The position numbers and the translations under genes are program-made. The notes under the pieces were generated by a model, which was given only the letters and a program-made list of their open reading frames with translations, made no database searches and was not told the DNA's origin. DNA of 64,000 nucleotides from Candidatus Fraserbacteria bacterium (GTDB lineage: Bacteria; Bipolaricaulota; Bipolaricaulia; RBG-16-55-9; DRXL01): positions 64,001-128,000 of the forward strand of contig CAMTVK010000003.1 in NCBI GenBank assembly GCA_947085185.1. Reading direction: 5' to 3'. Shown piece after piece: positions 47,932-61,588 of this stretch (position 1 is the stretch's first letter; every line of letters begins with the position of its first letter).

Positions 47932-49119
47932 ATGGAGAAGGTGCGCAAGTGGTTCACTGTTTCGGCCGTCTTGATGTTGATCTTGGTCTTTATCGTGGCT
48001 TTGGATAACTACAATCAAGAGTGGAAGCGCTATCAGCGGGCCTATCTCACGAAGGTCCTTACAGATAAAACTTTGGCCGAGAAGGGCTCGCTCTCGCTGC
48101 TCGATCGGCTCGTGATAGCGGTCAACGCTGAGATGAATCTTCAGATCAGAAAAGTCGTCACCGAGGTGGGGCGCAGCGCCGATCTGTGTATGACGTGTCA
48201 TGCCAACGTCGGCGTACCGGGGTTTACAGCCGAGCCCCTCAAAGATCTTTTGGAGACCCATAAAGCTATAAAAGTCATAGAGCAGATGCCGTTCGATCAA
48301 GTAGGGTGTACGGCGTGTCATGGGGGGAATGCTCTGGCGCTGCGTGCCGAGCCGGCGCATCACGAGATGCGGTCTCGCTTTGCCCAGATCTTTGAAGAGA
48401 GCGTGGAGCGATTGCGCTCAGAACGGTGGGCAGAGCGCCAGCGAGGGATCGAGCTCATTCGTTGGATGACTGCGAACGACTTTGGCTTTGTCTTCAACGC
48501 TCCCAAGGAGCAGCGCGAGCAAGCTCTCGCGCGCATTCTGGCGTGGTGGCAGCTCCACAAAGACACGTTCTTAGTCGAGGGCTTTGGGGAGCGCAGCTCG
48601 CCGTTCCGCACCGAAAACCCTCAAGCGAAGATAATCGAGCAGCGCACTGACGTCTCTCTCGCGGGCGAGCCGTTGCAGTTTGTCGGCTCGGCCACGTGCG
48701 TTGCGTGCCATGGACGCCCCGAAATCAGCGACGTCTACATCCCCGAATCGAGCAAGCGCCACGTCGAGATCTGGTTCAGGCCGGAGTTCATGACGAGCAA
48801 AAATATCGAAGAATTTAAAGATCATCCGTTTATAGACCAAGAGACGCTGAAGACCATGGACGTGACCTGCGAGGCGTGTCACGGTCCAGGGAGCGAATAC
48901 ACGAAGCTCATGCAGAAGGGGATGGCCCTCGAAGCCGCGGGCCAGAGCGTCGAAGCTGCTGCCCTTATCGGGAAGGCCAAAGAGCTTGCGCGGGCCAACG
49001 CCCGACAGAACATGAGCGAACATGACCCAGCCACCGGATACTCGCGCATTTGGGCGATCTTTGAAAGGCTGATCGAGAAGGCCCTCGCGGCCAAGGGACA
49101 GAACCGCCCCACCGAATAG
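47932..49119 (+). CDS. Membrane-anchored tetraheme cytochrome c
   Basis: N-terminal TM helix; CMTCH, CTACH, CVACH, CEACH. Confidence 0.9.
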   Translation: MEKVRKWFTVSAVLMLILVFIVALDNYNQEWKRYQRAYLTKVLTDKTLAEKGSLSLLDRLVIAVNAEMNLQIRKVVTEVGRSADLCMTCHANVGVPGFTAEPLKDLLETHKAIKVIEQMPFDQVGCTACHGGNALALRAEPAHHEMRSRFAQIFEESVERLRSERWAERQRGIELIRWMTANDFGFVFNAPKEQREQALARILAWWQLHKDTFLVEGFGERSSPFRTENPQAKIIEQRTDVSLAGEPLQFVGSATCVACHGRPEISDVYIPESSKRHVEIWFRPEFMTSKNIEEFKDHPFIDQETLKTMDVTCEACHGPGSEYTKLMQKGMALEAAGQSVEAAALIGKAKELARANARQNMSEHDPATGYSRIWAIFERLIEKALAAKGQNRPTE

Positions 49120-49124
49120 CTGTA

Positions 49125-49178
49125 TTGACAGGCGCCCCTGGATCTTTTAGAATAAGTCGGAGTCTTTTACTCGGAGTT
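49125..49178 (+). promoter_or_regulatory. Promoter and probable Rrf2 autoregulatory site
   Basis: TTGACA-17-TAGAAT, then GAGT-N5-ACTC resembling IscR type-1 sites. Confidence 0.6.
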
Positions 49179-49182
49179 GGAA

Positions 49183-49611
49183 ATGAGAGTGACACGCAAG
49201 AGCGATTATGGGCTACGGGCGTTGTGCACCCTTGCGCGCCACTATAACGGGGAGCCTGTCTCTATTGGGCAGCTTTCCGCAGAGCACAAGATTCCTGAAC
49301 CGTTCTTGGAGAAGATCATGCAAGAGCTGCGCGAGCACGGCTTGGTCGAAGCGACGCATGGGCGCGGCGGCGGATATCTGCTCAAGAGGAGCCCTTCGCG
49401 CATCTCGCTGCGCGAGATCGTGAAAGCTCTCGACGGCCCGATCGCGCTCGTGACGTGTTTGGACCCAGCCTTAAAGTGCTCCATCAAAGCGGGCTGCCCC
49501 ACAAGTTCTATCTGGGAGATTATTAACCAAAAGCTCGAGGAACATCTGGCTTCGCTGACGTTGGGCGATGTCGTCAATATGCACCACCCTGAACGGGTGA
49601 CCTCATCATGA
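49183..49611 (+). CDS. Rrf2 family (IscR-like) regulator
   Basis: DYGLRAL, GRGGGY, three Cys (C-x6-C-x5-C). Confidence 0.92.
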   Translation: MRVTRKSDYGLRALCTLARHYNGEPVSIGQLSAEHKIPEPFLEKIMQELREHGLVEATHGRGGGYLLKRSPSRISLREIVKALDGPIALVTCLDPALKCSIKAGCPTSSIWEIINQKLEEHLASLTLGDVVNMHHPERVTSS

Positions 49612-50654
49612 CGTTAGACGAGCGAGCCCGCGCAGCCTTACACACTATAGAGATTCCTCGCGCTCACCGACCGCTCAGCGATCTTGTGGAAGCTCTCTCT
49701 ATCGATGGAGAGGCTGTCCATGTGCGGCTGCGCTTGCTCCCCGCTTATGCGTCCAAATCTCAGCTCAAAGCCTGGGTCGAACAAGCATTCCAAGGTATTT
49801 CTGAGATCAAGACGGTGCACGTCGAATTTGCCCAGGCTCCACGACAGGCGCCTCGGCCCCGCCTCCTCCATCCCACACAGAAGCTGCACTTTCCCCAGAT
49901 CGCTCATATTGTTGCGATCTTTAGCGGCAAGGGCGGGGTAGGCAAAAGCACCGTCAGCGTCAATCTCGCTGTAGCGCTCGCGCAGTCAGGAGCGCACGTC
50001 GGGCTCTTTGACGCGGACGTGCACGGACCGAATATTCCTACGCTTCTGGGGCTGAAAGAGCCCCCCACAGTGAAAGCCGGAAAACTCATGCCCATCTTCA
50101 AATACGGCGTCCACGCTATGTCTATTGGGCTCTTAGTGGGCGGGGGAGATCCGCTCATCTGGCGCGGCCCGATGATCTCCAAAGCGATCAATGAGCTCTT
50201 AGAGAGCACGGCCTGGCCGGAGCTCGAGTATTTGATTATAGATCTCCCCCCAGGGACAGGCGACGCGCAGTTGGGCTTGGCTCAAGACCTAGAGCTTTCC
50301 GGGGCGATCGCTGTGACGACCCCCCAAGAAGTCGCGCTCTCCGATGTGCGCCGGGGCATTGGAGCTTTCCAGAAGCTGAATGTATCTATTGTTGGGCTCA
50401 TCGAGAACATGGCGTATTATATCTGTCCTCAGTGTGGGCACAAAGACTATATCTTTGGGCAAGGGGGTGGCGCCAGCGAAGCCCATAGACGCCAGATCCC
50501 GCTGTTGGGGCAGATCCCCCTCGATCCGAAGCTCCGCGAGAACGGCGACGCTGGGGTGCCTATTGTGATCGCGGCACCGTCGTCACCCACAGCTCAAGAG
50601 TTCACCAAGATCGCCCAGGCGCTCATCGAACGATGGAACACACACAAGGGGTGA
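49608..50654 (+). CDS. Mrp/ApbC Fe-S carrier ATPase
   Basis: GKGGVGKST, DADVHGP, WRGPM, DLPPGTGD, CPQC. Confidence 0.93.
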   Translation: MTLDERARAALHTIEIPRAHRPLSDLVEALSIDGEAVHVRLRLLPAYASKSQLKAWVEQAFQGISEIKTVHVEFAQAPRQAPRPRLLHPTQKLHFPQIAHIVAIFSGKGGVGKSTVSVNLAVALAQSGAHVGLFDADVHGPNIPTLLGLKEPPTVKAGKLMPIFKYGVHAMSIGLLVGGGDPLIWRGPMISKAINELLESTAWPELEYLIIDLPPGTGDAQLGLAQDLELSGAIAVTTPQEVALSDVRRGIGAFQKLNVSIVGLIENMAYYICPQCGHKDYIFGQGGGASEAHRRQIPLLGQIPLDPKLRENGDAGVPIVIAAPSSPTAQEFTKIAQALIERWNTHKG

Positions 50655-50660
50655 CCACCA

Positions 50661-50966
50661 ATGACCGCTGACGATATCCGCGAGGTGATCCGCGAGAACG
50701 TCTTCGACCCGGAGCTGGGCTACAACGTCGTGGATTTGGGGTTGCTCTACGACGTCGACATCCGCGACGACAAGACCGTGCGTCTGGAGATGACATTGAC
50801 GACTGTAGGCTGCCCGCTCTACGAGCAGATCCAAGCTGACTGTGAGCGTGCGATCAAGGAACGCTTTGGGGAGGACGTCACCGTTGAGGTCGATTTCGTC
50901 TTCGATCCGCCGTGGAGCCCAGAGATGATGTCGGAAGAGATCCGCGCGGAGATGGGATTTATCTAG
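50661..50966 (+). CDS. DUF59/SufT metal-sulfur cluster assembly factor
   Basis: DPELGYNVVDLGL, TLTTVGCP, FDPPWSPEMMS. Confidence 0.92.
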   Translation: MTADDIREVIRENVFDPELGYNVVDLGLLYDVDIRDDKTVRLEMTLTTVGCPLYEQIQADCERAIKERFGEDVTVEVDFVFDPPWSPEMMSEEIRAEMGFI

Positions 50967-51599
50967 ATGGCTCGCTGTGTCTATTGTGGGAAGCGGGTGG
51001 GCAAGCGTGCTTGCCCGGCGCTGGGAGGGCTGATCTGTCCGTCATGCTGTGGGCAGCATCGCGGGATCGACATCAGCTGTCCGATCAGCTGCAAATATTT
51101 CAAGGCGCATGAGAGCTATCAGCGCGATCGGCTCGCCGACGAATTCCACGCCCTGTGGCGTGAGAAGACCGAATCCCTCTATAAAGCTGGCAAGGAGCGC
51201 GTGATCGATCTCATCGTCATGATAGAGATGCTGATCTATCAGTTCTATCGGGAGCGGGCCTTGGGCACAGACACCGATGTGCTCGAGGCGCTCGAAGCGC
51301 TCCGACGTCGGTTCAGCCCAGTGATGGTCATCGAGGCGGGGAGCACCGCGTTAGCTGCTCACATATGGCACGGCCTGCAAGAGTTTAAAGAATCCCTGAC
51401 TCCTGAAGAGGCCTCCGAGAGCTTAGAGAAGAGCTTGGAGATCTTCAGAGCCTACACGGACGCAACGCATCCCAGAAAGTATCTGCACGGGCTTTTGGGG
51501 CACGTCGCGCGATATTTTCAGCTTCCTCCGGAGATGACCACCAGCCCATCCCTCATTGCTACCCCGCAGATCGTCACGCCTCCTACTGCCAGGGGATGA
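50967..51599 (+). CDS. Cys-rich (Zn/Fe-finger-like) hypothetical protein
   Basis: CVYC...CPA...ICPSCC...CPISC. Confidence 0.7.
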   Translation: MARCVYCGKRVGKRACPALGGLICPSCCGQHRGIDISCPISCKYFKAHESYQRDRLADEFHALWREKTESLYKAGKERVIDLIVMIEMLIYQFYRERALGTDTDVLEALEALRRRFSPVMVIEAGSTALAAHIWHGLQEFKESLTPEEASESLEKSLEIFRAYTDATHPRKYLHGLLGHVARYFQLPPEMTTSPSLIATPQIVTPPTARG

Positions 51600-52635
51600 C
51601 CCATTCCCACTGGGGCCCACGGAAGTACTGTCCAATAATAATGAGCGCGATCGCCGCTCCTATTAAGAAGACAAAGAGCGCTGTAGTCACCGGGCGGTCC
51701 CGCAGACGACGTCCCGGGGGCTTGCTCTTGTCTTTTCTCCAGAACTCCAGATAGGGCTCAATATAGGGGATCGCGATCAAGATCAAAATAAAGAGCGTGG
51801 GCGCGATCACGCCCCCAAGAGCCACGCTTGTCAGCGGCCCAATATTGGGAGAAATTGCTAACAGCTCTTGGATGCCCACAAAGTACCAAGGGGCTTTCTC
51901 GGGATTGGGCGTGAACGATGGGGTCGCCGGTTCTTGGAGTGGGGCATCGCGGAAGACTGAATAGATCCCAAGCCCCGCCGTCAATACAAACAGAATCGTA
52001 AACGCTACATAGAGAAAGTACGGATAGGTGATGATCTCTTCTTCTTCGGTGGGGAGGCGCTTGGCGAACGCTTCGAGGATCTTCTGGACTTTTTCGTGGG
52101 TGAGCTCAAACTGGGTTGGGATCTCTTTGGTCTTCTGCTCTTTGGAGACGTAGCTAAAGATCGTATAGAGAGCTTCAAAGTCTGAGGGGTCGCCGCCGCC
52201 ATCGAGCAAGGCTTCCACGCGATTGCTCAAGTCTTTGAGTCTCTTCACGGTCAGCGTCTGTCTGGAGGGCAGCTGGCGCAACGGGATCTTCTCGGCAGCG
52301 TAAGCCAAGACATCTCTCACGAGCCCTGGCTCGATCTGAAGAGCTTCGGCGACTTCGTAGCCTGGGATTTCTATCTCTATCTCTTGGGTGACGTTGATTT
52401 GACATGAGAGCCGCCAGCCCTGGCTGAGCTGCTCTTCGCCCAGGACGTCGAGCTCATTTTGATTGGGCTCTCCTCCGCCCTTGAAGACTCTGACGGCACA
52501 GGTCGAGCACTGCCCCTGGCCTCCGCACGTCGCAGGGAGTTGATCATCATAGCGATGCTCTTGAATGAGCTTTAAGAGATTGGTCCCTGGTCGGACGTCA
52601 AATTCTTTCTGGCCAAGAATGACGACCTTGGGCAT
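51583..52635 (-). CDS. [2Fe-2S] ferredoxin domain fused to cytochrome b subunit IV (PetD-like)
   Basis: CGGQGQCSTC...RLSCQ; C-terminal PLQEPATPSFTPNPEKAPWYF followed by TM helices. Confidence 0.85.
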   Translation of the reverse strand: MPKVVILGQKEFDVRPGTNLLKLIQEHRYDDQLPATCGGQGQCSTCAVRVFKGGGEPNQNELDVLGEEQLSQGWRLSCQINVTQEIEIEIPGYEVAEALQIEPGLVRDVLAYAAEKIPLRQLPSRQTLTVKRLKDLSNRVEALLDGGGDPSDFEALYTIFSYVSKEQKTKEIPTQFELTHEKVQKILEAFAKRLPTEEEEIITYPYFLYVAFTILFVLTAGLGIYSVFRDAPLQEPATPSFTPNPEKAPWYFVGIQELLAISPNIGPLTSVALGGVIAPTLFILILIAIPYIEPYLEFWRKDKSKPPGRRLRDRPVTTALFVFLIGAAIALIIIGQYFRGPQWEWVIPWQ

Positions 52636-52636
52636 A

Positions 52637-53266
52637 CTAGCTGGGGTTCACCCCTGCCTTGGCGGCTTGTTTGAGTCTCTCTAAGACGGGCGTGCCGCCG
52701 GGGTAGCACCCATCGAGCTTGGCTTTGCCGGCGACGACAGCCTCCGCAAAATCCTCGCACGTGGGATACCCGCAGGCCAGACAATCAAAGCCGGGCAAGA
52801 CCGCGCGGAGCTTGGCCGCCGCGGGCGAGAGCGCTGGAGCTTTGGGAGCTTCAGGAGCTTGCTCGACCTTGGGCCAGGACATGACTAACGGCTTAAAGAG
52901 CTCGATCACAAGATCGCTCTTCATCGAGATCTGGCATGATAAGACCCAGCCCTCCTTGCGCAGCTTATCGCTGAGGGGGCCGAGCATCGCCGGGGTGATC
53001 TGCTCTGGAGCCAGCCCTTCTAAGACTTTGACGCGGCAGGTCGCGCACGTGCCCTTGCCGCCGCACTGCGCGAACAGATCATACCCGGCTTTTTTGAGGG
53101 CTTGCATCAGGTTCTGCTCCAGGGGTAAGACCAGCTCATTGCCGTCGTTGACGATCTTGACGCGTGCCTCTCCCTCAGCTGTGAGCACATTCTTTAATAT
53201 CCCTAACACAAGAGCTACCGAGATGGCCATCAGGGCCATCGTCGCTACTGGTACGAGATAGACCAT
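52637..53266 (-). CDS. RnfB substitute: TM helix, NqrF-like [2Fe-2S] domain and RnfB-type FeS domain
   Basis: CGGKGTCATC...LSCQ; LPGFDCLACGYPTC...CYPG. Confidence 0.8.
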   Translation of the reverse strand: MVYLVPVATMALMAISVALVLGILKNVLTAEGEARVKIVNDGNELVLPLEQNLMQALKKAGYDLFAQCGGKGTCATCRVKVLEGLAPEQITPAMLGPLSDKLRKEGWVLSCQISMKSDLVIELFKPLVMSWPKVEQAPEAPKAPALSPAAAKLRAVLPGFDCLACGYPTCEDFAEAVVAGKAKLDGCYPGGTPVLERLKQAAKAGVNPS

Positions 53267-53293
53267 AAGATCACAAGCTATGAGCTTGGTTTT

Positions 53294-53890
53294 TCATCCT
53301 CCAAAGTCGCGAATATTGATCATTCCCGAAAAGCCCACGAAGCTCATGGCCATGAGGCCCGCAATGATCAGGGCGATCCCTGGGCCTTTGAGCCCCTCAG
53401 GGATGGGAGCAAAGCGCAGGCGCTCTCTCATAGCCGCCATCAAGATGATCGCCAAAGCCCAACCGACGCCCCCGCCAAACCCAAACGCCACGCTCTCGAG
53501 AAACCCCAAATTCCATGTGGCTAACGCGAAGAGCACCCCGCCCAGAATCGCACAATTCACTGTGATCAAGGGCAAGAAGATCCCTAAAGAGTTATACAAA
53601 GCCGGGAGAAAGCGCTTCATGAACATCTCCACGGCCTGGACCAAGAACGCGATCGTCACAATATAGACGATGAGCGACAGATATCCTACTCCCAAGGGAT
53701 CGAGCACAAAGTGCTTGATGAGCCAATTGGCAGGCAGGGTCATGGTCAGCACGAAGATCACCGCCATGCCCATCCCCGACGCCGATGCGTATTCGCCCGA
53801 GACGCCAATGAACGGACAGATTCCCAAGAACGTCGTGAGCAAGATATTATTCGTGAGGATCGCGCCAAGCACAATGAGAAAGATGTCCAT
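53294..53890 (-). CDS. rnfA: Rnf complex subunit A
   Basis: NNILL..FLGICP, LGIFLPLITVNCAILG. Confidence 0.9.
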   Translation of the reverse strand: MDIFLIVLGAILTNNILLTTFLGICPFIGVSGEYASASGMGMAVIFVLTMTLPANWLIKHFVLDPLGVGYLSLIVYIVTIAFLVQAVEMFMKRFLPALYNSLGIFLPLITVNCAILGGVLFALATWNLGFLESVAFGFGGGVGWALAIILMAAMRERLRFAPIPEGLKGPGIALIIAGLMAMSFVGFSGMINIRDFGG

Positions 53891-53893
53891 AAG

Positions 53894-54574
53894 CTACGCG
53901 CCTCCTCCGATCTGGCCGCCGGGGGAGAAGTGCCTTACGATCCCGACATACAGCCCCACAAGTAAGAACGCCCCCGCCGGGATGATCATGATGACCCAGG
54001 GAGTCCAGCCGCTGAAGATCTGAATCCCGAACAAGCTGCCAAAGCCCAAGAGCTCCCGAACGATGCCGAGTATCGTCAGGGACATCGTGAACCCTAGCCC
54101 GACGCCGATAGCGTCGAGCGCCGACAGTCCTGGGCCGTTTTGGCTGGCGAACGCTTCGGCTCGTCCCAGCACGAAACAGTTCGTAATGATCAATGGGACG
54201 TAAGGCCCAAGCGCTGCCGACAGCGGCGGCAGATACGCGCGCAAGAAGATATCGACGATCGTTACCCAGAACGCAATGATGATCATATACGCGGGCAGGC
54301 GCACTTCCGCGGGGATAACGGTGCGGAGAGCTGCTACGGTGGCGCTTGAGGCCACGGTCGCGATCAGCGTCGCAAGCCCTTGGGCCATGCCGTTCATGGC
54401 CATGTTCGTCGCGCCCATGGTGGGGCACATCGCCAAGATCATCCGGAAAGTTGGGTTGTCGTCCCAGATATCGCGAACGAGTTCCTTCCACCCTTTGGTC
54501 TGGGGCAGCCGCTGGGGGAACGGAATAGCCGGCGCTGATGCGCGTTGCATCACTGCTGTCTTCACTTCTGCCAT
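53894..54574 (-). CDS. rnfE: Rnf complex subunit E
   Basis: NPTF..ILAMCP, PLIITNCFVLGRAEAFA, RELLGFG. Confidence 0.9.
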   Translation of the reverse strand: MAEVKTAVMQRASAPAIPFPQRLPQTKGWKELVRDIWDDNPTFRMILAMCPTMGATNMAMNGMAQGLATLIATVASSATVAALRTVIPAEVRLPAYMIIIAFWVTIVDIFLRAYLPPLSAALGPYVPLIITNCFVLGRAEAFASQNGPGLSALDAIGVGLGFTMSLTILGIVRELLGFGSLFGIQIFSGWTPWVIMIIPAGAFLLVGLYVGIVRHFSPGGQIGGGA

Positions 54575-54648
54575 CCGCCTCAACTCCTTCTGACTGCGCT
54601 GAGGTCAGTCATAAAAAAGCATACTAAAACTGTCCGATTTTTTCAAGG

Positions 54649-55347
54649 TCATCGCTTTTTCTCTAGAATTTTTCGCAAGTTCGCGATCGCCTGGTTGAGC
54701 AGATCTCGCACCGTCGTGGACGTATACGTAGCCCCGGTGATGGCGTCAAACTGATTGGGGGCTTTGGGGGAGCTGGGATCGCGGAACTTCACAAACTCGA
54801 TGCGCGGCTCGGTCTTCATCCCTTTGAATTGGCTCCAAAATTTCTCTTCGGTCATGCGGAAGCCCAACCCTGGGGTCTCGCCGATCTCGAACGTCACGAC
54901 ATGCGCCCCGATAATCTCTGACAGATCGGGCTTGAGCGCCACTTGCATGGCGACGAGTCCCTGAAAGCCGCTGCCTTGGATGCGAATAACGTACGCTGAG
55001 AGCTCCCCGCCGATCTTGTCTTTGTAGACCTTCCAGTACGTAAAGCTATCGGCCTTGACCTCCTCGATGTGCTCTTTGAAGTACTGATCTATTTGGGCGG
55101 GGGAGAGCACAGGCAGCCCCTCTTGGGGGAAGAGCTCGTCAGCAGAGTACTCGCCCAGCGCCACAAGGATGCTCGAGCGCAGGCGGGCCTTGGCGTTCGC
55201 TTCAATAGTTGCTTTCGTCACTTCATTGACCACTGCGAGCAGTCCCCCCGCTATGGCGGCGATCGCTGTCAGCACCACGATCATGCGCCACTCGTGAGGC
55301 CCGATCAGCTTCTTCTTTCTCTTTTGGGGTTGTGCTGGCTCAGCCAT
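54649..55347 (-). CDS. rnfG: Rnf complex subunit G (FMN-binding)
   Basis: TM helix, ETPGLG, DAITGATYTS. Confidence 0.9.
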   Translation of the reverse strand: MAEPAQPQKRKKKLIGPHEWRMIVVLTAIAAIAGGLLAVVNEVTKATIEANAKARLRSSILVALGEYSADELFPQEGLPVLSPAQIDQYFKEHIEEVKADSFTYWKVYKDKIGGELSAYVIRIQGSGFQGLVAMQVALKPDLSEIIGAHVVTFEIGETPGLGFRMTEEKFWSQFKGMKTEPRIEFVKFRDPSSPKAPNQFDAITGATYTSTTVRDLLNQAIANLRKILEKKR

Positions 55348-55353
55348 ACAAGA

Positions 55354-56469
55354 TCACCTCTTTTGGAGAGCTGGCGCCGAGAAGCTCTTGGGGATCGTGA
55401 ATCTGTCAATCAACGGCGTGAACATATTGCCAATTAAAATAGCGAACGTCACCCACTCGGCATAGCCGGTCAGCCCACGCCCCAGTACCGTCAACACTCC
55501 CAACATTATACCGAAGATCCATCGTCCGCGGACGGTCATAGGGCTCGTGACAGGATCGGTCGCATTGAGAAATGCCGCAAAGAGCAAGCCCCCACTGAGC
55601 ACGGCGTAGATCCCATCAGGGAATCTCACAGGATTGATAAAGCTGAGAAACTGCGAAGTCAGCCCAGCAGTAACGATCATAACTATTGAGACGCGCCAGT
55701 CAATGATCCGTGCATATAAGAGATAGAGTCCGCCTAGGAGAACGAGCAGGGCCGAAGTCGCTCCCAGGACATCCGCCCGACCAAAGCCCGTCACGAGCGT
55801 AAAGAGCTCGGGATTGGCAATGTCTGGGGAGTTGAACGCCCCCAAGGGGGTCGCCTTGGCGATGGCGTCTATGCCCTTTACTGATTCGGGAGACCAATGC
55901 ACAAAACCTCCAAGTCCGTCCGTCAACGGGTTGAAGGGCATGTACCAGCGCGTTGTCATAGCCGACGGGAACGCTAAGAGTAAAAACGCCCGCCCGCTGA
56001 TCGCCGGGTTGAAGATATTATATCCCGACCCGCCGAAGAGTTCTTTGACCCCAATGGCGAAGAAGATCCCCATCGCGACCATCCACAGGGGCAGCGTTGG
56101 GGGCAGCGAGAGCGCATAGAGAATGCATGTCACCAGCAGACCCTCGGTGATCTCGTGGCGCCGGACTGCACAGAAAGTAAACTCGACAGCCATCCCGACA
56201 AGATAAGTCACTACGATGATCGCCAGGGCACGCCATCCGTAAAAGTAGATGCTCGCCAGGGCCAGAGGGATGCAGACGAGTATAGGAGAGCCCATGTAGC
56301 GTTGCATTCCCAAGGCGTCCCGAATATAGGGGGCTTGGCGAGCTGGCTTATCGCTGCCGCCGAAGATCGAATCTTTGAGACCCTCCCATAGGATAGCCAA
56401 GCCCTCGGCACGGCGGGCGTGGAGGTCGCGATGCACCCTCTCGAAGAAATTATAGATCTTGTCTTTCAT
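55354..56469 (-). CDS. rnfD: Rnf complex subunit D
   Basis: KELFGGSGYNIFNPA, ATPL, ATDPVTSP, ILIGNMFTPLID. Confidence 0.9.
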   Translation of the reverse strand: MKDKIYNFFERVHRDLHARRAEGLAILWEGLKDSIFGGSDKPARQAPYIRDALGMQRYMGSPILVCIPLALASIYFYGWRALAIIVVTYLVGMAVEFTFCAVRRHEITEGLLVTCILYALSLPPTLPLWMVAMGIFFAIGVKELFGGSGYNIFNPAISGRAFLLLAFPSAMTTRWYMPFNPLTDGLGGFVHWSPESVKGIDAIAKATPLGAFNSPDIANPELFTLVTGFGRADVLGATSALLVLLGGLYLLYARIIDWRVSIVMIVTAGLTSQFLSFINPVRFPDGIYAVLSGGLLFAAFLNATDPVTSPMTVRGRWIFGIMLGVLTVLGRGLTGYAEWVTFAILIGNMFTPLIDRFTIPKSFSAPALQKR

Positions 56470-57890
56470 GATGCCTCCGTGAGAACCTTGCGTTTGCCTT
56501 CGCGAATCTGTTCTAAGAGCGGGATCTTGCTGGGGCAGACATAGGCACACAACCCGCACTCAATGCACGCAAAGAGATCAATGCTTTGCGCTTCGCTCAC
56601 CATACCGTGGGCAGAGTATTCCCCAAGCAGCGCCGGCACTAAATTCTGCGGGCAGACGTCCACGCAATAACCGCACTTGACGCAGGGCCTGGGGTTTCCG
56701 TTCAAGCTGGTCGTGGCGCGCTTGTACTTGACCCACGGCAGACTCAGATACACCCCCGTGAACGAGTCGCGATCGAAGCCCGGCCCAACGACGGGAAAGA
56801 GCTCATGCTCTGGTTCTTTGAGGGCGATCACAGCGGGGATCTCTCTGGTGATGGGGCTATCGAGATCCCCCTGGGCTTGTCCACGCATGACGCTTCCCGC
56901 GATGATGCGCCCGTTGCCCTTCAAGTTCTTCTCTAAAAGATTCCCGATGGGGGTGCCTACCCGAACCCGATAGTTCCCAGGCTCTTTTACAGCTGAGCCC
57001 GCTACGGAGACGACGCGCTCGACGAAGGGCTTGCCCTCTACGACCGCTTCATAAGCTGCCACACACTGCTGGACATCACACACGACGCACCCGACGTCAG
57101 TGGCGTAGCCTCGCTGCGGGAGCAGGAGCCCCAAGAGCGTGCGCACAAGCACCGCGTCGTCGCCCTGAGGGTATTTGGGACGCAATTGATGGATCGTGCA
57201 CCAGTCATAGTATTCGAGGCGCTCGATGAGCTCTTCGTAGATTCTCGGCTTGTTATATCCCAAGCCAATGTGCACTTGGACGTTCCCGAGCGCTTGGCGC
57301 AGGATCTTGATGCCGTTGACAAATTTGTCGAACTCTTCGTAGAGCAACTGATCGGGTGCTTCGCAGAACGGCTCGGTCTCAACGGCGTTGATTAGTAAAT
57401 AGCGAATCTTCTCTGGAGTGGCTGGGGAGGAGTGATAGATCGTGGGGAAGCCCGCTTGGCCTCCCGAAGTGACCCCGGCTTCGTAGAGGATTTTTCCCAG
57501 TTCTTCTGGGGGCAGTTTTTCGTAGTTGGCCGGGCGATCAAGCAAGAGCCAATCGTCTTTGCCGTCGGACTCGATCTCGACGCAGAGGGCCTCGCCACCT
57601 AACGGATGCGGGCGCTTCTCTATCTTCACGACCCTTCCGGAGATGCTTGCGTGGACAGGGGTCGAGGGTCTGTTGGGGTCGGGCTCGTTGCGCCCGATGA
57701 CCTGCCCCGTCTTGACGCGGTCGCCCTCTTTGACAGTCGGCACGACTTCGGCAGAAAAGCCCTGACGCAAGGGAATCAGAACTCTCGGGGGCAGCGGCGC
57801 GGATGCGAGCCGCTTGCCGCGCGGCGTCCCCTCAAAGAGCCCAAAGTAATGGCCACCCTTGAACGTCTTGAGCGCTCCTAAGACAGCCAT
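56466..57890 (-). CDS. rnfC: Rnf complex subunit C
   Basis: PVHASISG, AGFPT, YPQG, two CxxCxxCxxxCP motifs. Confidence 0.9.
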   Translation of the reverse strand: MAVLGALKTFKGGHYFGLFEGTPRGKRLASAPLPPRVLIPLRQGFSAEVVPTVKEGDRVKTGQVIGRNEPDPNRPSTPVHASISGRVVKIEKRPHPLGGEALCVEIESDGKDDWLLLDRPANYEKLPPEELGKILYEAGVTSGGQAGFPTIYHSSPATPEKIRYLLINAVETEPFCEAPDQLLYEEFDKFVNGIKILRQALGNVQVHIGLGYNKPRIYEELIERLEYYDWCTIHQLRPKYPQGDDAVLVRTLLGLLLPQRGYATDVGCVVCDVQQCVAAYEAVVEGKPFVERVVSVAGSAVKEPGNYRVRVGTPIGNLLEKNLKGNGRIIAGSVMRGQAQGDLDSPITREIPAVIALKEPEHELFPVVGPGFDRDSFTGVYLSLPWVKYKRATTSLNGNPRPCVKCGYCVDVCPQNLVPALLGEYSAHGMVSEAQSIDLFACIECGLCAYVCPSKIPLLEQIREGKRKVLTEAS

Positions 57891-58649
57891 TTAGCGTCGC
57901 TTCCTTTCTTCGGTCCACCAGGGTTTGCTGTACTCGTCCTTGCGAATTCTCCAAAAGTGCAGCGCCACGAGAAAGATCAACGCCATCGGCAGCACAAAGA
58001 TGTGAATGACGTACCACCGCAAGAGCGAGGGCTGCCACAGGTCCGTGCCCCCCAAGAGTATCTGTTTCACATACGGCCCGATGATTGGTGTGCCGTCCGC
58101 GATATTGCTGGCGATCTTCGCTGCATAATAGCCCAACTGGTCCCAGGGCAGAATATACCCACTGAATGCAGAGAGCACCGTGATGACGAAGAGCAAGACC
58201 CCGATGACCCAGTTGAATTCTCTGGGCTTTTGATAGGATCCGGTGAAGAAGACCCTCAGCATATGGAAGAACACGGCGAAGACCATCAGCTCGGCGGCCC
58301 ATTTGTGCATATTGCGCATGAATCTTCCCAAGGGCACAGCGTTGACCAGCTCGCGGATAGAATCATAGGCACGCTCAACTGAGGGCACATAATAGAACAT
58401 TAAAAAGACCCCGGTGATCAAGAGAATCACAAAGAGCCAGGTTGCGATCACGCCCATCCACATCCAATTGTAGCTGAGTCGGGCCGATTCTTTATGGATC
58501 TTCGCGGGCAGGATATGCACGAAGAAGTTGCGCCTATTGAGAGCGAGCCGGTCGGCTTCAGTCTGGGGCAGCCCCTCGCGGCGGAAGATGGAGAGCCACA
58601 CGCGCGAGCGCCGTATACCCTGGCCCAGCAGAAGGAGTCTGTCCATCAT
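57891..58649 (-). CDS. Cytochrome b6-like (short, 4-TM) subunit
   Basis: RNMHKWAA, FHMLRVF, REFNW, GYILPWDQ, IHIF...LHF. Confidence 0.92.
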   Translation of the reverse strand: MMDRLLLLGQGIRRSRVWLSIFRREGLPQTEADRLALNRRNFFVHILPAKIHKESARLSYNWMWMGVIATWLFVILLITGVFLMFYYVPSVERAYDSIRELVNAVPLGRFMRNMHKWAAELMVFAVFFHMLRVFFTGSYQKPREFNWVIGVLLFVITVLSAFSGYILPWDQLGYYAAKIASNIADGTPIIGPYVKQILLGGTDLWQPSLLRWYVIHIFVLPMALIFLVALHFWRIRKDEYSKPWWTEERKRR

Positions 58650-59197
58650 GAGAACTTGATGTCACTCCCGTCGGGGATGGGGCCTTCGATAGATCGGCCG
58701 TCGGCCGTGAGATACTGAGTACTTGGGACGACTTTGGCCTTATCGACTTGGAGACGGCCGTCGGGGGTGAGGGTGAGCTCATAGAAGGGCAGGGGTCGAG
58801 GCGCTGGGCCGCCCAGGACTCGCCCGTCGCGGGCAAAGACGCTCCCATGACAGGGGCAGAGCGCGTGCACCACGGGATACTCTTGACTTGGCGGCCCAAA
58901 GGGCTTATAGCTGCACCCCAGATGGGTGCAGACCATAGAGAGGGCCTGAAATCCCAAGGGCGTTCGGAAGATGAAGACCTGCTTCGCTTCGAGAGGGCGC
59001 ATCTCTCCGACCTGATAGTCACTGGGGCGCCCTACGGTGAACGTCGTGGTGGGCTCATAGGTCAGGTGCGGCTTCAGATAATACGGGACGCTCTGGGCCA
59101 CACCACCCAAAGCCAACGCGAGCGATCCCCATCCCAGCCACCCGAGAAAGCGTCGCCGCGTCAGCGGGCTCACTCTTGGGTCTCTGTCCGCCTCCAT
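58646..59197 (-). CDS. Rieske iron-sulfur protein (Tat)
   Basis: TRRRFL, CTHLGC, CPCHGS, GPAPRPL. Confidence 0.95.
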   Translation of the reverse strand: MEADRDPRVSPLTRRRFLGWLGWGSLALALGGVAQSVPYYLKPHLTYEPTTTFTVGRPSDYQVGEMRPLEAKQVFIFRTPLGFQALSMVCTHLGCSYKPFGPPSQEYPVVHALCPCHGSVFARDGRVLGGPAPRPLPFYELTLTPDGRLQVDKAKVVPSTQYLTADGRSIEGPIPDGSDIKFS

Positions 59198-59371
59198 TCA
59201 GGAACCTGCTCCTTCGTTTATGGGGTGATTATATTACAGCCCCTTTGCGCTGTCAAACTTCTCTGATCTTCTACTCTATTGAGGGGATCTTTTGCCATGA
59301 TCTGCGTCATCCCTGAGGATGACGTCGGTCATGTGATGGCCCTCGCTCTTTTTGTTATGATTATTATATCA

Positions 59372-59962
59372 ATGTTTACTGGGATTGTCACGGACACCGG
59401 CGAGGTGCTCACGGCGCACGCGACGCGGCTTGTCATCGCTACCCCTAAGCTCTTTGGAGCATTAGAAATCGGGCGGAGCGTCGCGGTCAATGGAGCGTGC
59501 CTGACGGTCATCGAGCTCACTCCTGCCGCGGAGAGCTTCGCGGCAGAGCTGAGCCCAGAGACCATCCGGCGCACGAACTTGGGAGCCCTGCGCCGCGGCG
59601 ATCTCGTCAATTTGGAGCTGCCCTTACGATTTTCTGATCGTCTCGATGGGCACTTCGTGCTGGGGCACGTGGACACCGTTGGGGAGGTCGTCTCGATCTC
59701 TCGCACAGAGAAGGGCGCGGTCTTCCGGTTTCGCGTCGATAAGAGCTACTCACACTATCTGGTCGAGAAGGGCTCGATTGCCATAGATGGGATCAGCTTG
59801 ACGATCTTCAATATCTCTGATGGGGAGTTTGACGTGGCGATCATCCCTCATACGCTCGAGCACACGAACTTACGGGTGCGTTGCCCTGGGGATAGAGTGA
59901 ATGTCGAGTTCGACATTTTGGGAAAGTATATAGAAAGACTCTGCAAGGGAGGCTGCTTGTGA
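59372..59962 (+). CDS. ribE: Riboflavin synthase
   Basis: [37 protein letters not shown]. Confidence 0.95.
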
Positions 59963-61188
59963 TGGGGTTTGCCAAGATCAAAGAGGCGCTGGAAGCGCTC
60001 AAGCGTGGTGAGATGATCGTCGTCGTAGACGACGAAGACCGCGAGAACGAAGGCGACGTCGTATTGGCAGCCCAGTTTGTCACCCCGGAGAAGATCAATT
60101 TTATGGCGAAGGAGGCCCGGGGGATCATCTGTGTGCCCATGACGGGGGAGCGGCTCGATGAGCTTGGGATCAAGCTCATGGTGCAGACGGATTCTGGGGG
60201 AAAGGGATGCGCGTTCACGGTCTCAGTAGACGCTCGCGAGGGGATCAGCACCGGGACGTCTGCGTACGATCGCGCCCATACTATTAGAACGCTGATCGCT
60301 CCCAAGACCAAGCCTTCAGATTTAGTCCAGCCGGGGCATGTCTTTCCGTTGCGTGCTCGGCCCGGCGGCGTCTTGCAGCGGGCTGGCCACACCGAAGCCA
60401 GCGTCGATCTCTGTAAATTAGCGGGGCTCTACCCTGCTGCGGTCATCTGCGAGGTGATGAACGAGGACGGCACGATGGCCCGGCTGCCCCAGCTGGAAAG
60501 ATTCGCACAGAAGCATAATTTGCTCATTATAAGCATTGCCGATCTCATTCGCTATCGCTACGAACGCGAGCGCTTGGTCGAGAAGATCGCCTGGGCCGAT
60601 CTTCCTACGGAGTTTGGGGAGTTTACGATCCATGCCTATCGCAGTCTCGTTGATGGAAAGGAGCACATCGCGCTGGTCAAGGGCGAGGTCACCGGAAGAG
60701 AGAACGTCTTAGTGCGGGTGCACTCAGAATGTCTGACAGGAGATGTCTTTGGCTCGCTCAAGTGCGACTGTGGGGAGCAGCTCCGGCAAGCCCTGCGCCA
60801 GATCGCCCATGAGGGTATGGGGGTCTTGCTCTATTTACGCCAAGAGGGACGCGGCATCGGCCTAGGAAACAAGATCAAAGCGTATCATCTCCAAGATAGA
60901 GGGCTGGACACGGTGGAGGCGAACCGGCAGCTCGGCTTTAAAGAAGATCTCCGCGAGTACGGCATCGGGGTACAGATTCTGAAAGATTTGGGGCTGAGCA
61001 CCATTCGAATTCTCACCAATAACCCCAAGAAGCTCGTGGGCATCGAGGCCTACGGCATCAAGATCGTGGAGCAACTGCCCCTTTTAGTCGCGCCCAACCC
61101 CCATAATTATAACTATCTGAGGACGAAGAAAGAGAAACTAGGCCACCAGCTCGATGCGATCTTCGCGAACTTCAGCAATGAGCCTTAA
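59959..61188 (+). CDS. ribBA: DHBP synthase / GTP cyclohydrolase II
   Basis: [39 protein letters not shown]. Confidence 0.97.
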
Positions 61189-61588
61189 GATCGCGATCGT
61201 TGTCAGTCAATTTCACAGAGAGATCACCCAAGAGATGCTCAAGGGCGCTCAAGAGCACCTGCGAGGCGTCGCCGAGACCGAAGTCTTCTGGGTGCCGGGG
61301 GCGTTCGAGATTCCAGGGACCGTCAAGGGGTTGGCGCAGTCGGGGCGCTATGACGGCATCTTGCCCTTAGGGTGTGTGATCAAGGGCGAGACTGCCCATT
61401 TTGAGCATATTGCCCGCGCCGTGACTGATGCGCTCATGCGCTTGACTGTGGAATGCGATACCCCAATAGTCTTTGGGGTGCTGACCCCCTACACCGAAGA
61501 GCAAGCGTGGGCACGCGTCTATAAGGGGGCTGAAGCAGCCAAGAGCCTGCTGGAGCTTATCACTCTGCGTCGGCGGCTCTCTTATTAA
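61178..61588 (+). CDS. ribH: Lumazine synthase
   Basis: [24 protein letters not shown]. Confidence 0.95.

Follow-up and report, generated by a model that had tools for sequence, protein, structure and literature searches.

The window analysed here is a stretch of 64,000 nucleotides (nt) of contig CAMTVK010000003.1, from the metagenome-assembled genome (MAG) GCA_947085185.1 of a Candidatus Fraserbacteria bacterium. This host assembly, coded G000 below, comprises 32 contigs and 1.72 Mb and is 96.8% complete. On its minus strand the window carries an operon of nine genes in the order Rieske, cytochrome b6, RnfC, RnfD, RnfG, RnfE, RnfA, an atypical RnfB (B′) and a fusion of a [2Fe-2S] domain with cytochrome b subunit IV. 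Gene families, assigned by Pfam and NCBIfam profile searches, and the putative promoter are as follows.

59228..59256, minus strand: predicted sigma-70-type promoter (TTGACA-17-TATAAT), with a 12/12 consensus match, upstream of the Rieske gene
58646..59197, minus strand: Rieske [2Fe-2S] protein with the twin-arginine translocation (Tat) signal RRRF (PF00355, 5.5e-9; PetC and bc1 Rieske NCBIfam matches)
57891..58649, minus strand: four-helix cytochrome b6 (PF00033, 1.8e-44; ExtP, 261 bits)
56466..57890, minus strand: RnfC, binding NAD(H) and flavin mononucleotide (FMN), with two [4Fe-4S] clusters (TIGR01945, 323 bits, above cut-off; PF01512, PF13375 and Fer4)
55354..56469, minus strand: RnfD membrane subunit (PF03116, 2.8e-88; TIGR01946, 254 bits, above cut-off)
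54649..55347, minus strand: RnfG, periplasmic FMN subunit (PF04205; TIGR01947, 3.9e-25, 89 bits, below the 102-bit cut-off)
53894..54583, minus strand: RnfE (PF02508, 4.1e-55; RsxE model above cut-off)
53294..53890, minus strand: RnfA (PF02508, 5.4e-56; TIGR01943, 217 bits, below the 229-bit cut-off)
52637..53266, minus strand: atypical RnfB, B′ (PF00111 and PF04060; best NCBIfam match to the nqrF N-terminus)
51583..52635, minus strand: [2Fe-2S]::subunit IV fusion (PF00111 and a weak PF00032; ExtQ, 6.7e-12)

The genes nearly abut, with intergenic distances down the operon of -4, 0, -4, 6, 65, 3, 27 and 1 nt. The original prediction, made from the letters of the window, had given this gene order with its coordinates and had described the Rnf set as bracketed by two halves of cytochrome b. 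All nine genes are found where it placed them, on the same strand and with agreeing family matches, and the bracketing is real and conserved in relatives.

The cytochrome b module has the hallmarks of a Rieske complex. The Rieske protein, of the bc/b6f type, contains the disulfide cysteines and the cluster motifs CTHLGC and CPCHGSVF. Cytochrome b6 aligns best with the cyanobacterial b6 1vf5_A (6.9e-46), and in this alignment all four (4/4) histidine ligands of haems bL and bH are present. The same alignment lacks the cysteine for haem cn (or ci), which we take to be Cys35 in b6, and places a tryptophan at the residue preceding b6 Leu36. The fusion has 350 residues and consists of a [2Fe-2S] domain (1-95), a five-helix cytoplasmic domain (about 100-195) and a subunit IV with three transmembrane helices. 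Its ferredoxin domain finds its best Foldseek match in the [2Fe-2S] domain of NqrF (7xk3_F, E 6.5e-5). The helical domain, modelled at a predicted local distance difference test (pLDDT) score of about 80, found no match and appears to be a novel cytoplasmic domain. The motif of the quinol-oxidising Qo site is APWY, and the loop around it, TPSFTPNPEKAPWYF, hardly varies among 16 orthologues. The accessible text of Kao and Hunte 2014 (PMC4122944) describes an APWY clade of uncharacterised split cytochromes b spread over several phyla, predicts their pairing with mid-to-high-potential Rieske proteins and suspects that they operate in reverse. The Rieske signature found here is S-F (‘Mid+’). The operon itself has no gene for a c-type cytochrome; a co-occurring tetrahaem cytochrome c gene lies 2.5 kb off.

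The Rnf set is equally recognisable. RnfC, D, G, E and A match Rnf models, with RnfC, RnfD and RnfE above their cut-offs and RnfG and RnfA slightly under, and an RnfB-related gene is present. RnfC keeps PF01512 and Fer4. Flavinylation motifs occur in RnfG (DAITGAT) and RnfD (DAIAKAT), the consensus of which we take to mark covalent FMN sites, and G000 contains a gene for the flavin transferase ApbE (at G000:C21). The B′ protein (209 residues) has an N-terminal transmembrane helix, an NqrF-type [2Fe-2S] domain and then an RnfB-type PF04060 [4Fe-4S] domain; its match to nqrF covers only positions 5-120 of 405, and Pfam detects in it none of the ferredoxin-type Fer4 polyferredoxin domains. Canonical RnfB of the same class, found in G039 and G037, combines PF04060 with Fer4. 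All eight B′ cysteines (8/8) are invariant in 16 orthologues.

Variation around B′ is also observed. In family f5 it carries a second, tandem PF04060-like Fe-S domain, and in G014 it is split into A′-Fer2 and Fer2-FeS proteins (L053 9143-9979, L059 9117-9920); from these variants, the proposed cytoplasmic Fe-S wire is modular. Other replacements of RnfB exist. Another family of the class has a canonical-looking RnfCDGEA followed by a MenA-like UbiA prenyltransferase gene instead of RnfB (L033, G039:C37, 4771-10026), a further hint of links between Rnf and quinone in the phylum, and at L035 (G029:C55, 4177-7597) RnfE-RnfA are followed by a 698-residue HdrD/GlpC-like protein (two CCG domains and Fer4) in place of RnfB.

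Close homologues of the system carry the source labels Candidatus Bipolaricaulota or Bipolaricaulia. The fusion occurs in 27 of 41 related genomes, as a single open reading frame in 25 and as a ferredoxin-linker protein with a separate subunit IV in two. Eighteen loci fetched from these relatives comprise seven with the full order, ten with a reduced order and one cut by a contig end; in G035 all nine genes are present, spread over two contigs. A scan of GTDB with one genome per species returned 79 loci. Full-length fusions account for 24 of them, in MAGs labelled Bipolaricaulota, Acetothermia or ‘Fraserbacteria’ together with two ‘Thermotogae’ and one ‘uncultured bacterium’. In the remaining 55, from which only the subunit IV part is matched, the hosts are Gemmatimonadota, Geobacterales, Desulfobacterota, Bacteroidota, Myxococcota, Zixibacteria, a planctomycete and others. 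Cytochrome b6 and subunit IV are neighbours in every one of these 55 loci where both were detected, and RnfD, RnfG, RnfE, RnfA or B′ stands beside them in none (0/55). The nesting of rnf genes between cytochrome b halves is so far specific to Bipolaricaulota. As a separate observation, seven of the 55 loci (L062, L064, L071, L076, L080, L087, L088) encode a small 4Fe-4S dicluster protein like the C-terminus of RnfC; its gene lies directly upstream of the APWY-type cytochrome b6 in Gemmatimonadota and some Desulfobacterales.

The synteny search across GTDB, suggested with the original prediction, thus recovers the same order in independent MAGs, and an order shared by independent assemblies is due neither to chance nor to misassembly. 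This makes it exceedingly improbable that the cluster arose in assembly or binning, or that it is a functionless decaying remnant. The window does come from a MAG, and the congener G009 does show decay; against this, the order is shared by MAGs from many studies, the reading frames are intact at 37-97% identity, and the cluster cysteines, haem histidines and Qo loop are invariant.

Natural variants of the operon act as deletion experiments that show which subunits make up its core: besides the full form there are a reduced one and a remnant with Rnf genes only. The reduced form, at ten loci (G014, G018, G019, G022, G025, G030-G034), comprises Rieske, b6, RnfC, RnfD, a longer B′ and the fusion. 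RnfE, RnfA and RnfG are missing from these loci, RnfG being judged at the locus only (PF04205 was not searched genome-wide). Genome-wide, PF02508 (RnfA/E) and ApbE are each found in none of the ten reduced-form genomes (0/10), and in the alignment their RnfD no longer shows an intact D-x4-A-T flavinylation motif. The longer B′ begins with a membrane part left over from the C-terminal third of RnfA (hhalign 96.5%, E 8e-10), which indicates that the reduced form derives from the full form by deletion. In a tree of RnfC, six reduced forms make up one clade (98/98), and the reduced form of G014, with its different B′ architecture, groups with full forms (90/99). All bootstrap trees (200/200) require the variant state to change twice, although the strongly supported branches by themselves force no more than one change. 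RnfG, RnfE and RnfA are dispensable in at least ten genomes. RnfC, RnfD and B′ cannot form an Rnf complex by themselves, and their persistence without RnfA, RnfE and RnfG, with cluster cysteines intact, argues that they work with the cytochrome b module and not as an Rnf.

The opposite loss is seen in G009, a genome of the same genus that is 90% complete. It keeps RnfC-D-G-E-A-B′ at 81-94% identity, and it has three clean gaps between syntenic flanks, one for Rieske plus b6, one for the fusion and one for the tetrahaem cytochrome c; no cytochrome b and no haem-copper oxidase (COX1) was found genome-wide. Its RnfC has lost a nine-residue loop, GGQAGFPTI (conserved GGxAGFPT), which is the glycine-rich FMN/NADH loop of the protein.

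Both variants bear on an alternative reading of the operon, in which an Rnf acting as ferredoxin:NAD+ oxidoreductase and a menaquinol:cytochrome c reductase are ordinary complexes, independent of each other, that share an operon for co-regulation. Each gene does fit a known Rnf or Rieske/cytochrome b family, G009 has RnfCDGEA-B′ without cytochrome b genes, and Takami et al. 2012, in the accessible text (PMC3267732), took the Rnf genes as a normal Rnf. This reading has to contend, however, with the ten reduced genomes that keep RnfC, RnfD and B′ with the cytochrome b genes and have neither RnfA/E nor ApbE, with a B′ devoid of the Fer4 domains found in canonical RnfB of the same class, with petB/petD homologues that are adjacent in all other phyla sampled, and with an RnfC that, in G009, has no FMN-loop motif.

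Structure prediction points the same way. RnfC, B′ residues 30-209 and fusion residues 1-200 were modelled as a three-chain complex with a 16-row alignment per chain and the fusion as scored partner. The interaction prediction score from aligned errors (ipSAE) is 0.61 (runs 0.59, 0.72 and 0.61), against 0.16 for the best control, in which RnfC was replaced; the runs share at least 88% of contacts, with a partner pLDDT of at least 81. The score mark used is reached by 116/157 solved complexes and 2/215 mismatched pairs, a calibration that is rough here (own alignments, three chains). Since no similar complex has been solved, memory of the model is an unlikely source of the score. The confident interface joins fusion helices 125-151, including the invariant R132, R139 and G146, to RnfC residues 121-125, 185-192, 203, 220-229 and 284-285. 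RnfC F187, N203, E220 and R224 are invariant in hybrid RnfCs and different in two canonical RnfCs of the same class. In the RnfC of G009, 6 of 20 interface positions are changed, including F187L and R224S, at an overall identity of 82%. The cytoplasmic helical domain of the fusion is thus predicted to dock on RnfC. A role of B′ as the bridge to subunit IV was set aside, the confident contacts being with RnfC; this does not, however, speak against binding of B′. This modelled contact between RnfC and subunit IV also counts against two independent complexes, a reading that is on balance improbable.

The proposal of a supercomplex in the original prediction stands in part. Synteny, the reduced variant, the loss in G009 and the predicted docking favour Rnf and Rieske/cytochrome b proteins acting as one unit. 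The link that emerges from prediction joins RnfC, and not RnfA/E, to the subunit IV extension, and ion-coupled transfer, a part of the proposal, drops out as a conserved core because RnfG, RnfE and RnfA are dispensable in the reduced genomes.

The respiratory context of the operon extends beyond the coordinates of the original prediction, to a gene on the other strand that belongs to the system:

47932..49119, plus strand: membrane-anchored tetrahaem cytochrome c (CxxCH at residues 86, 126, 256 and 313), 2.5 kb past the operon end

Its orthologue in G024 (39% identity, E 6e-97) lies directly beside the Rieske gene, as it does in G021. The gene is found in 28 of the 41 genomes, namely in all 27 with the fusion and in G003, where the cluster is cut by a contig end, and in none of the 13 others. 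It is the evident candidate for a periplasmic partner of the Rieske protein. COX1 (PF00115) occurs in 25 of the 27 fusion genomes versus 2 of the 14 others, those two being about 70% complete. G000 itself encodes two COX1-family proteins, several multihaem cytochromes c and two cytochromes b. A second Rieske/cytochrome b locus (L031, G000:C9, 2578-10026) contains a 153-residue Rieske protein, a 364-residue cytochrome b and four multihaem c-type cytochromes, some with MtrC-like domain matches, and is flanked by three Crp/Fnr-type regulators. Genes for a MenA-like prenyltransferase and UbiE/MenG are present in G000, with no other quinone genes in their neighbourhoods. MqnA/D were found in none of the 41 genomes, and MenB scored above cut-off only in G024 among five genomes searched. 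No NuoH was found in G000 at 96.8% completeness. The co-occurrence of tetrahaem cytochrome c and oxidase, the second cytochrome b locus and the MenA-like and UbiE genes place the system in a respiratory, probably O2-reducing chain, and not in acetogenic energy conservation alone.

Given this body of evidence, the operon probably encodes one hybrid membrane redox machine, so far confined to Bipolaricaulota: an NAD(H)-linked Rieske/cytochrome b complex of an aerobic-type chain. At the outer face, a b6f-type two-haem module of Rieske, b6 and subunit IV, with its APWY motif, would handle (mena)quinol. At the cytoplasmic face, subunit IV would bear the NqrF-like [2Fe-2S] domain and the helical domain; the latter would dock RnfC, RnfD would hold RnfC at the membrane, and B′ ([2Fe-2S] plus [4Fe-4S]) would contribute extra clusters. 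The low-potential b-haem chain could then exchange electrons with NAD(H) through an Fe-S wire that replaces or supplements the normal Qi site. Between RnfC and haem bH, such a wire would consist of the two [4Fe-4S] clusters of RnfC, the [2Fe-2S] cluster of subunit IV and possibly B′. The tetrahaem cytochrome c would take up electrons from the Rieske protein and deliver them to haem-copper oxidases. The ion-pumping path of RnfG, RnfE and RnfA would be an ancestral add-on, deleted in several lineages. A conserved route in which the Rieske protein feeds the periplasmic FMN of RnfD/RnfG was considered and rejected, given that reduced-form genomes lack ApbE and have a decayed RnfD motif.

The direction of electron flow, provided that the hybrid is real, can be read in several ways. 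Electrons of NADH (or ferredoxin) may enter on the negative (n) side, at haem bH/Qi, and leave through Qo, the Rieske protein and cytochrome c, a reading that comes close to an even chance without reaching it. The complex would then work as a combined NADH:cytochrome c oxidoreductase and run a Q cycle internally. Entry of NADH on the n side is favoured because oxidases terminate the chain and no other NADH:quinone enzyme was found in G000. Canonical Rnf exports ions when electrons run from RnfB to RnfC and imports them when they run from RnfC to RnfB, so the route from ferredoxin to RnfC to cytochrome b would be the energy-conserving one.

Bifurcation at Qo in the style of anammox bacteria, with reduction of NAD+, is a doubtful choice for a hybrid, and some other direction or mode is slightly less likely again. 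As an explanation of the operon as a whole, an anammox-type bifurcating quinol:NAD+ reductase is a sub-case of the hybrid and rather unlikely. Of the electrons from quinol oxidation at Qo, one would run downhill to the Rieske protein, tetrahaem cytochrome c and oxidase, and the other uphill through bL/bH, the [2Fe-2S] cluster and RnfC to NAD+. The architecture, which joins a cytoplasmic NAD(P) module to a b6-type core, parallels that of Kuste4569-74 and Kustd1480-85 of anammox bacteria in the accessible part of PMC12954380. The ‘Mid+’ signature S-F of the Rieske protein also fits, as does the pairing with mid-to-high-potential Rieske proteins predicted for the APWY clade in what is accessible of PMC4122944; Nuo already serves NADH oxidation in reduced-form genomes, and the co-occurring haem-copper oxidase offers a strong acceptor. 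Uphill synthesis of NADH is, however, not obviously needed by heterotrophs or by acetogens with Hdr-Mvh and other sources of NADH, and G000 has no other NADH:quinone entry that could be found.

A self-contained ‘complex I+III in one’ is a further suggestion that we regard as speculative and probably not correct. NADH would act through RnfC and the ferredoxin tethered to subunit IV on haem bH/Qi, with a Q cycle of its own leading to tetrahaem cytochrome c and oxidase, and the full form would add ferredoxin through a Na+/H+-pumping RnfB′-A/E-G-D path. If true, this would be a second, independent linking of Rnf to quinone, besides the Na+-translocating NADH:quinone oxidoreductase (Na+-NQR), and a natural, hard-wired form of the injection of ferredoxin electrons at Qi that has long been debated for cyclic flow through cytochrome b6f.

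Several points weigh against a hybrid machine in the NAD(H)-linked form favoured here. The case is built from genome comparison and modelling; the docking score is a model confidence and not a measurement, and B′ lies outside the confident contacts of the subunit IV extension. Kinship among the related genomes means that co-occurrence counts overstate the case. The reading frames of RnfC, D, G, E, A and B′ in G009 are intact, and a stand-alone Rnf function of this module is possible. NuoH is present in 10/10 reduced-form genomes, which would make a plain NADH:quinone role redundant there. Since flow from RnfC towards RnfB imports ions in canonical Rnf, the full form also offers NADH electrons no evidently economical way to cytochrome b by RnfG/E/A. 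In G000, finally, neither a route to the quinone head group (no MenB above cut-off, no MqnA/D) nor ALAD (HemB) was found; haem and the quinone head group are either scavenged or made by unknown pathways.

Neighbouring genes of the operon are also of note. A divergent riboflavin operon (RibE, RibBA, RibH; 59279-61588, plus strand) lies immediately upstream of the Rieske promoter, and RibE is still beside RnfC in G009; it is possible that it supplies cofactor for the flavin-dependent Rnf part. Between the operon end and the tetrahaem cytochrome c stand four plus-strand genes (49177-51599), all syntenic in G009, for an Rrf2 regulator, a Mrp/NUBPL-type Fe-S carrier ATPase, a PF01883 Fe-S assembly protein and a cysteine-rich protein of 210 residues without family; a part in regulating the complex or in assembling its Fe-S clusters is possible for them.

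Rieske/cytochrome b complexes and Rnf are among the oldest energy-converting machines and are regarded as separate, the former being quinone-dependent and the latter quinone-independent. A true hybrid would mean that a bc-type complex can have its low-potential side connected straight to NAD(H), an arrangement so far proposed only for anammox bacteria and never proven. It would bear on the respiration of the deep-branching ‘acetogenic’ Bipolaricaulota, on how Na+-NQR evolved from Rnf and on whether electrons of ferredoxin can enter b6-type complexes on the n side. The comparative evidence for such a putative machine is unusually informative.

The original prediction had held the architecture to be undescribed. 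The cluster itself was recorded by Takami et al. 2012, whose accessible text (PMC3267732) states in one sentence, with no interpretation, that rnfCDGEAB are clustered with Rieske and cytochrome b genes; in the accessible portion of Colman et al. 2022 (PMC9586279) Rnf is only mentioned. Beyond the sentence of Takami et al., no literature interpreting a Rieske/cytochrome b-Rnf cluster was found in open papers (supplements aside), and the claim of novelty holds only in this sense.

Among known systems, the closest are the Rieske/cytochrome b complexes of the anammox bacterium Kuenenia stuttgartiensis (Kuste4569-4574 and Kustd1480-1485), which have cytoplasmic NAD(P) oxidoreductase subunits; according to the accessible text of PMC12954380, bifurcation to NAD(P)H has been proposed for them and co-migration of their subunits observed. 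The comparison, already drawn in the original prediction, is apt, since here too a gene for an Fe-S flavoprotein (RnfC) lies inside a cluster of Rieske, b6 and subunit IV. As far as that source goes, both have a b6-type four-helix cytochrome b, a subunit IV-like protein and a Rieske protein, a cytoplasmic NAD(P)-binding Fe-S flavoprotein in the same cluster (its cytoplasmic contact being predicted here), a proposed Fe-S wire from haem bN to flavin, and multihaem c partners. They differ in that the NAD(H) module here is RnfC/RnfD from Rnf, complete in the ancestral form; subunit IV here bears a [2Fe-2S] and a docking domain, the haem cn cysteine is missing and cytochrome c is encoded outside the operon. 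The host, moreover, is not a lithotroph that would evidently have to make NADH uphill.

With Rnf, the system shares recognisable orthologues of RnfC, D, G, E and A, flavinylation motifs and an ApbE in the genome; unlike Rnf, it has RnfB replaced by a protein with a transmembrane helix, an NqrF-type [2Fe-2S] domain and PF04060 but no polyferredoxin, its genes are nested between cytochrome b halves, and RnfG, RnfE and RnfA are dispensable in many lineages. Na+-NQR is likewise an Rnf-derived machine that became quinone-linked, and B′ and the subunit IV domain resemble the transmembrane and [2Fe-2S] part of NqrF. Here, however, there is no NqrF domain for flavin adenine dinucleotide and NADH, RnfC keeps FMN and Fe-S motifs, unlike NqrA, and quinone chemistry comes from the Rieske/cytochrome b module. 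Complexes of the APWY clade (Geobacter ExtP/ExtQ type, Gemmatimonadota, Planctomycetes and others) have the same Qo motif and split b6 plus subunit IV and include the nearest relatives of these two proteins outside the phylum, at 33-50% identity, but in them b6 and subunit IV are adjacent, and Rnf genes or a ferredoxin fusion occur in 0/55 loci. Cytochrome b6f differs through its haem cn cysteine; no cytochrome subunit is encoded in the operon, with the co-occurring tetrahaem cytochrome c gene lying 2.5 kb away. The system is a variant of a still-hypothetical class, the NAD(P)-linked Rieske/cytochrome b complexes, with an NAD(H) arm made from Rnf parts and a subunit IV fusion.

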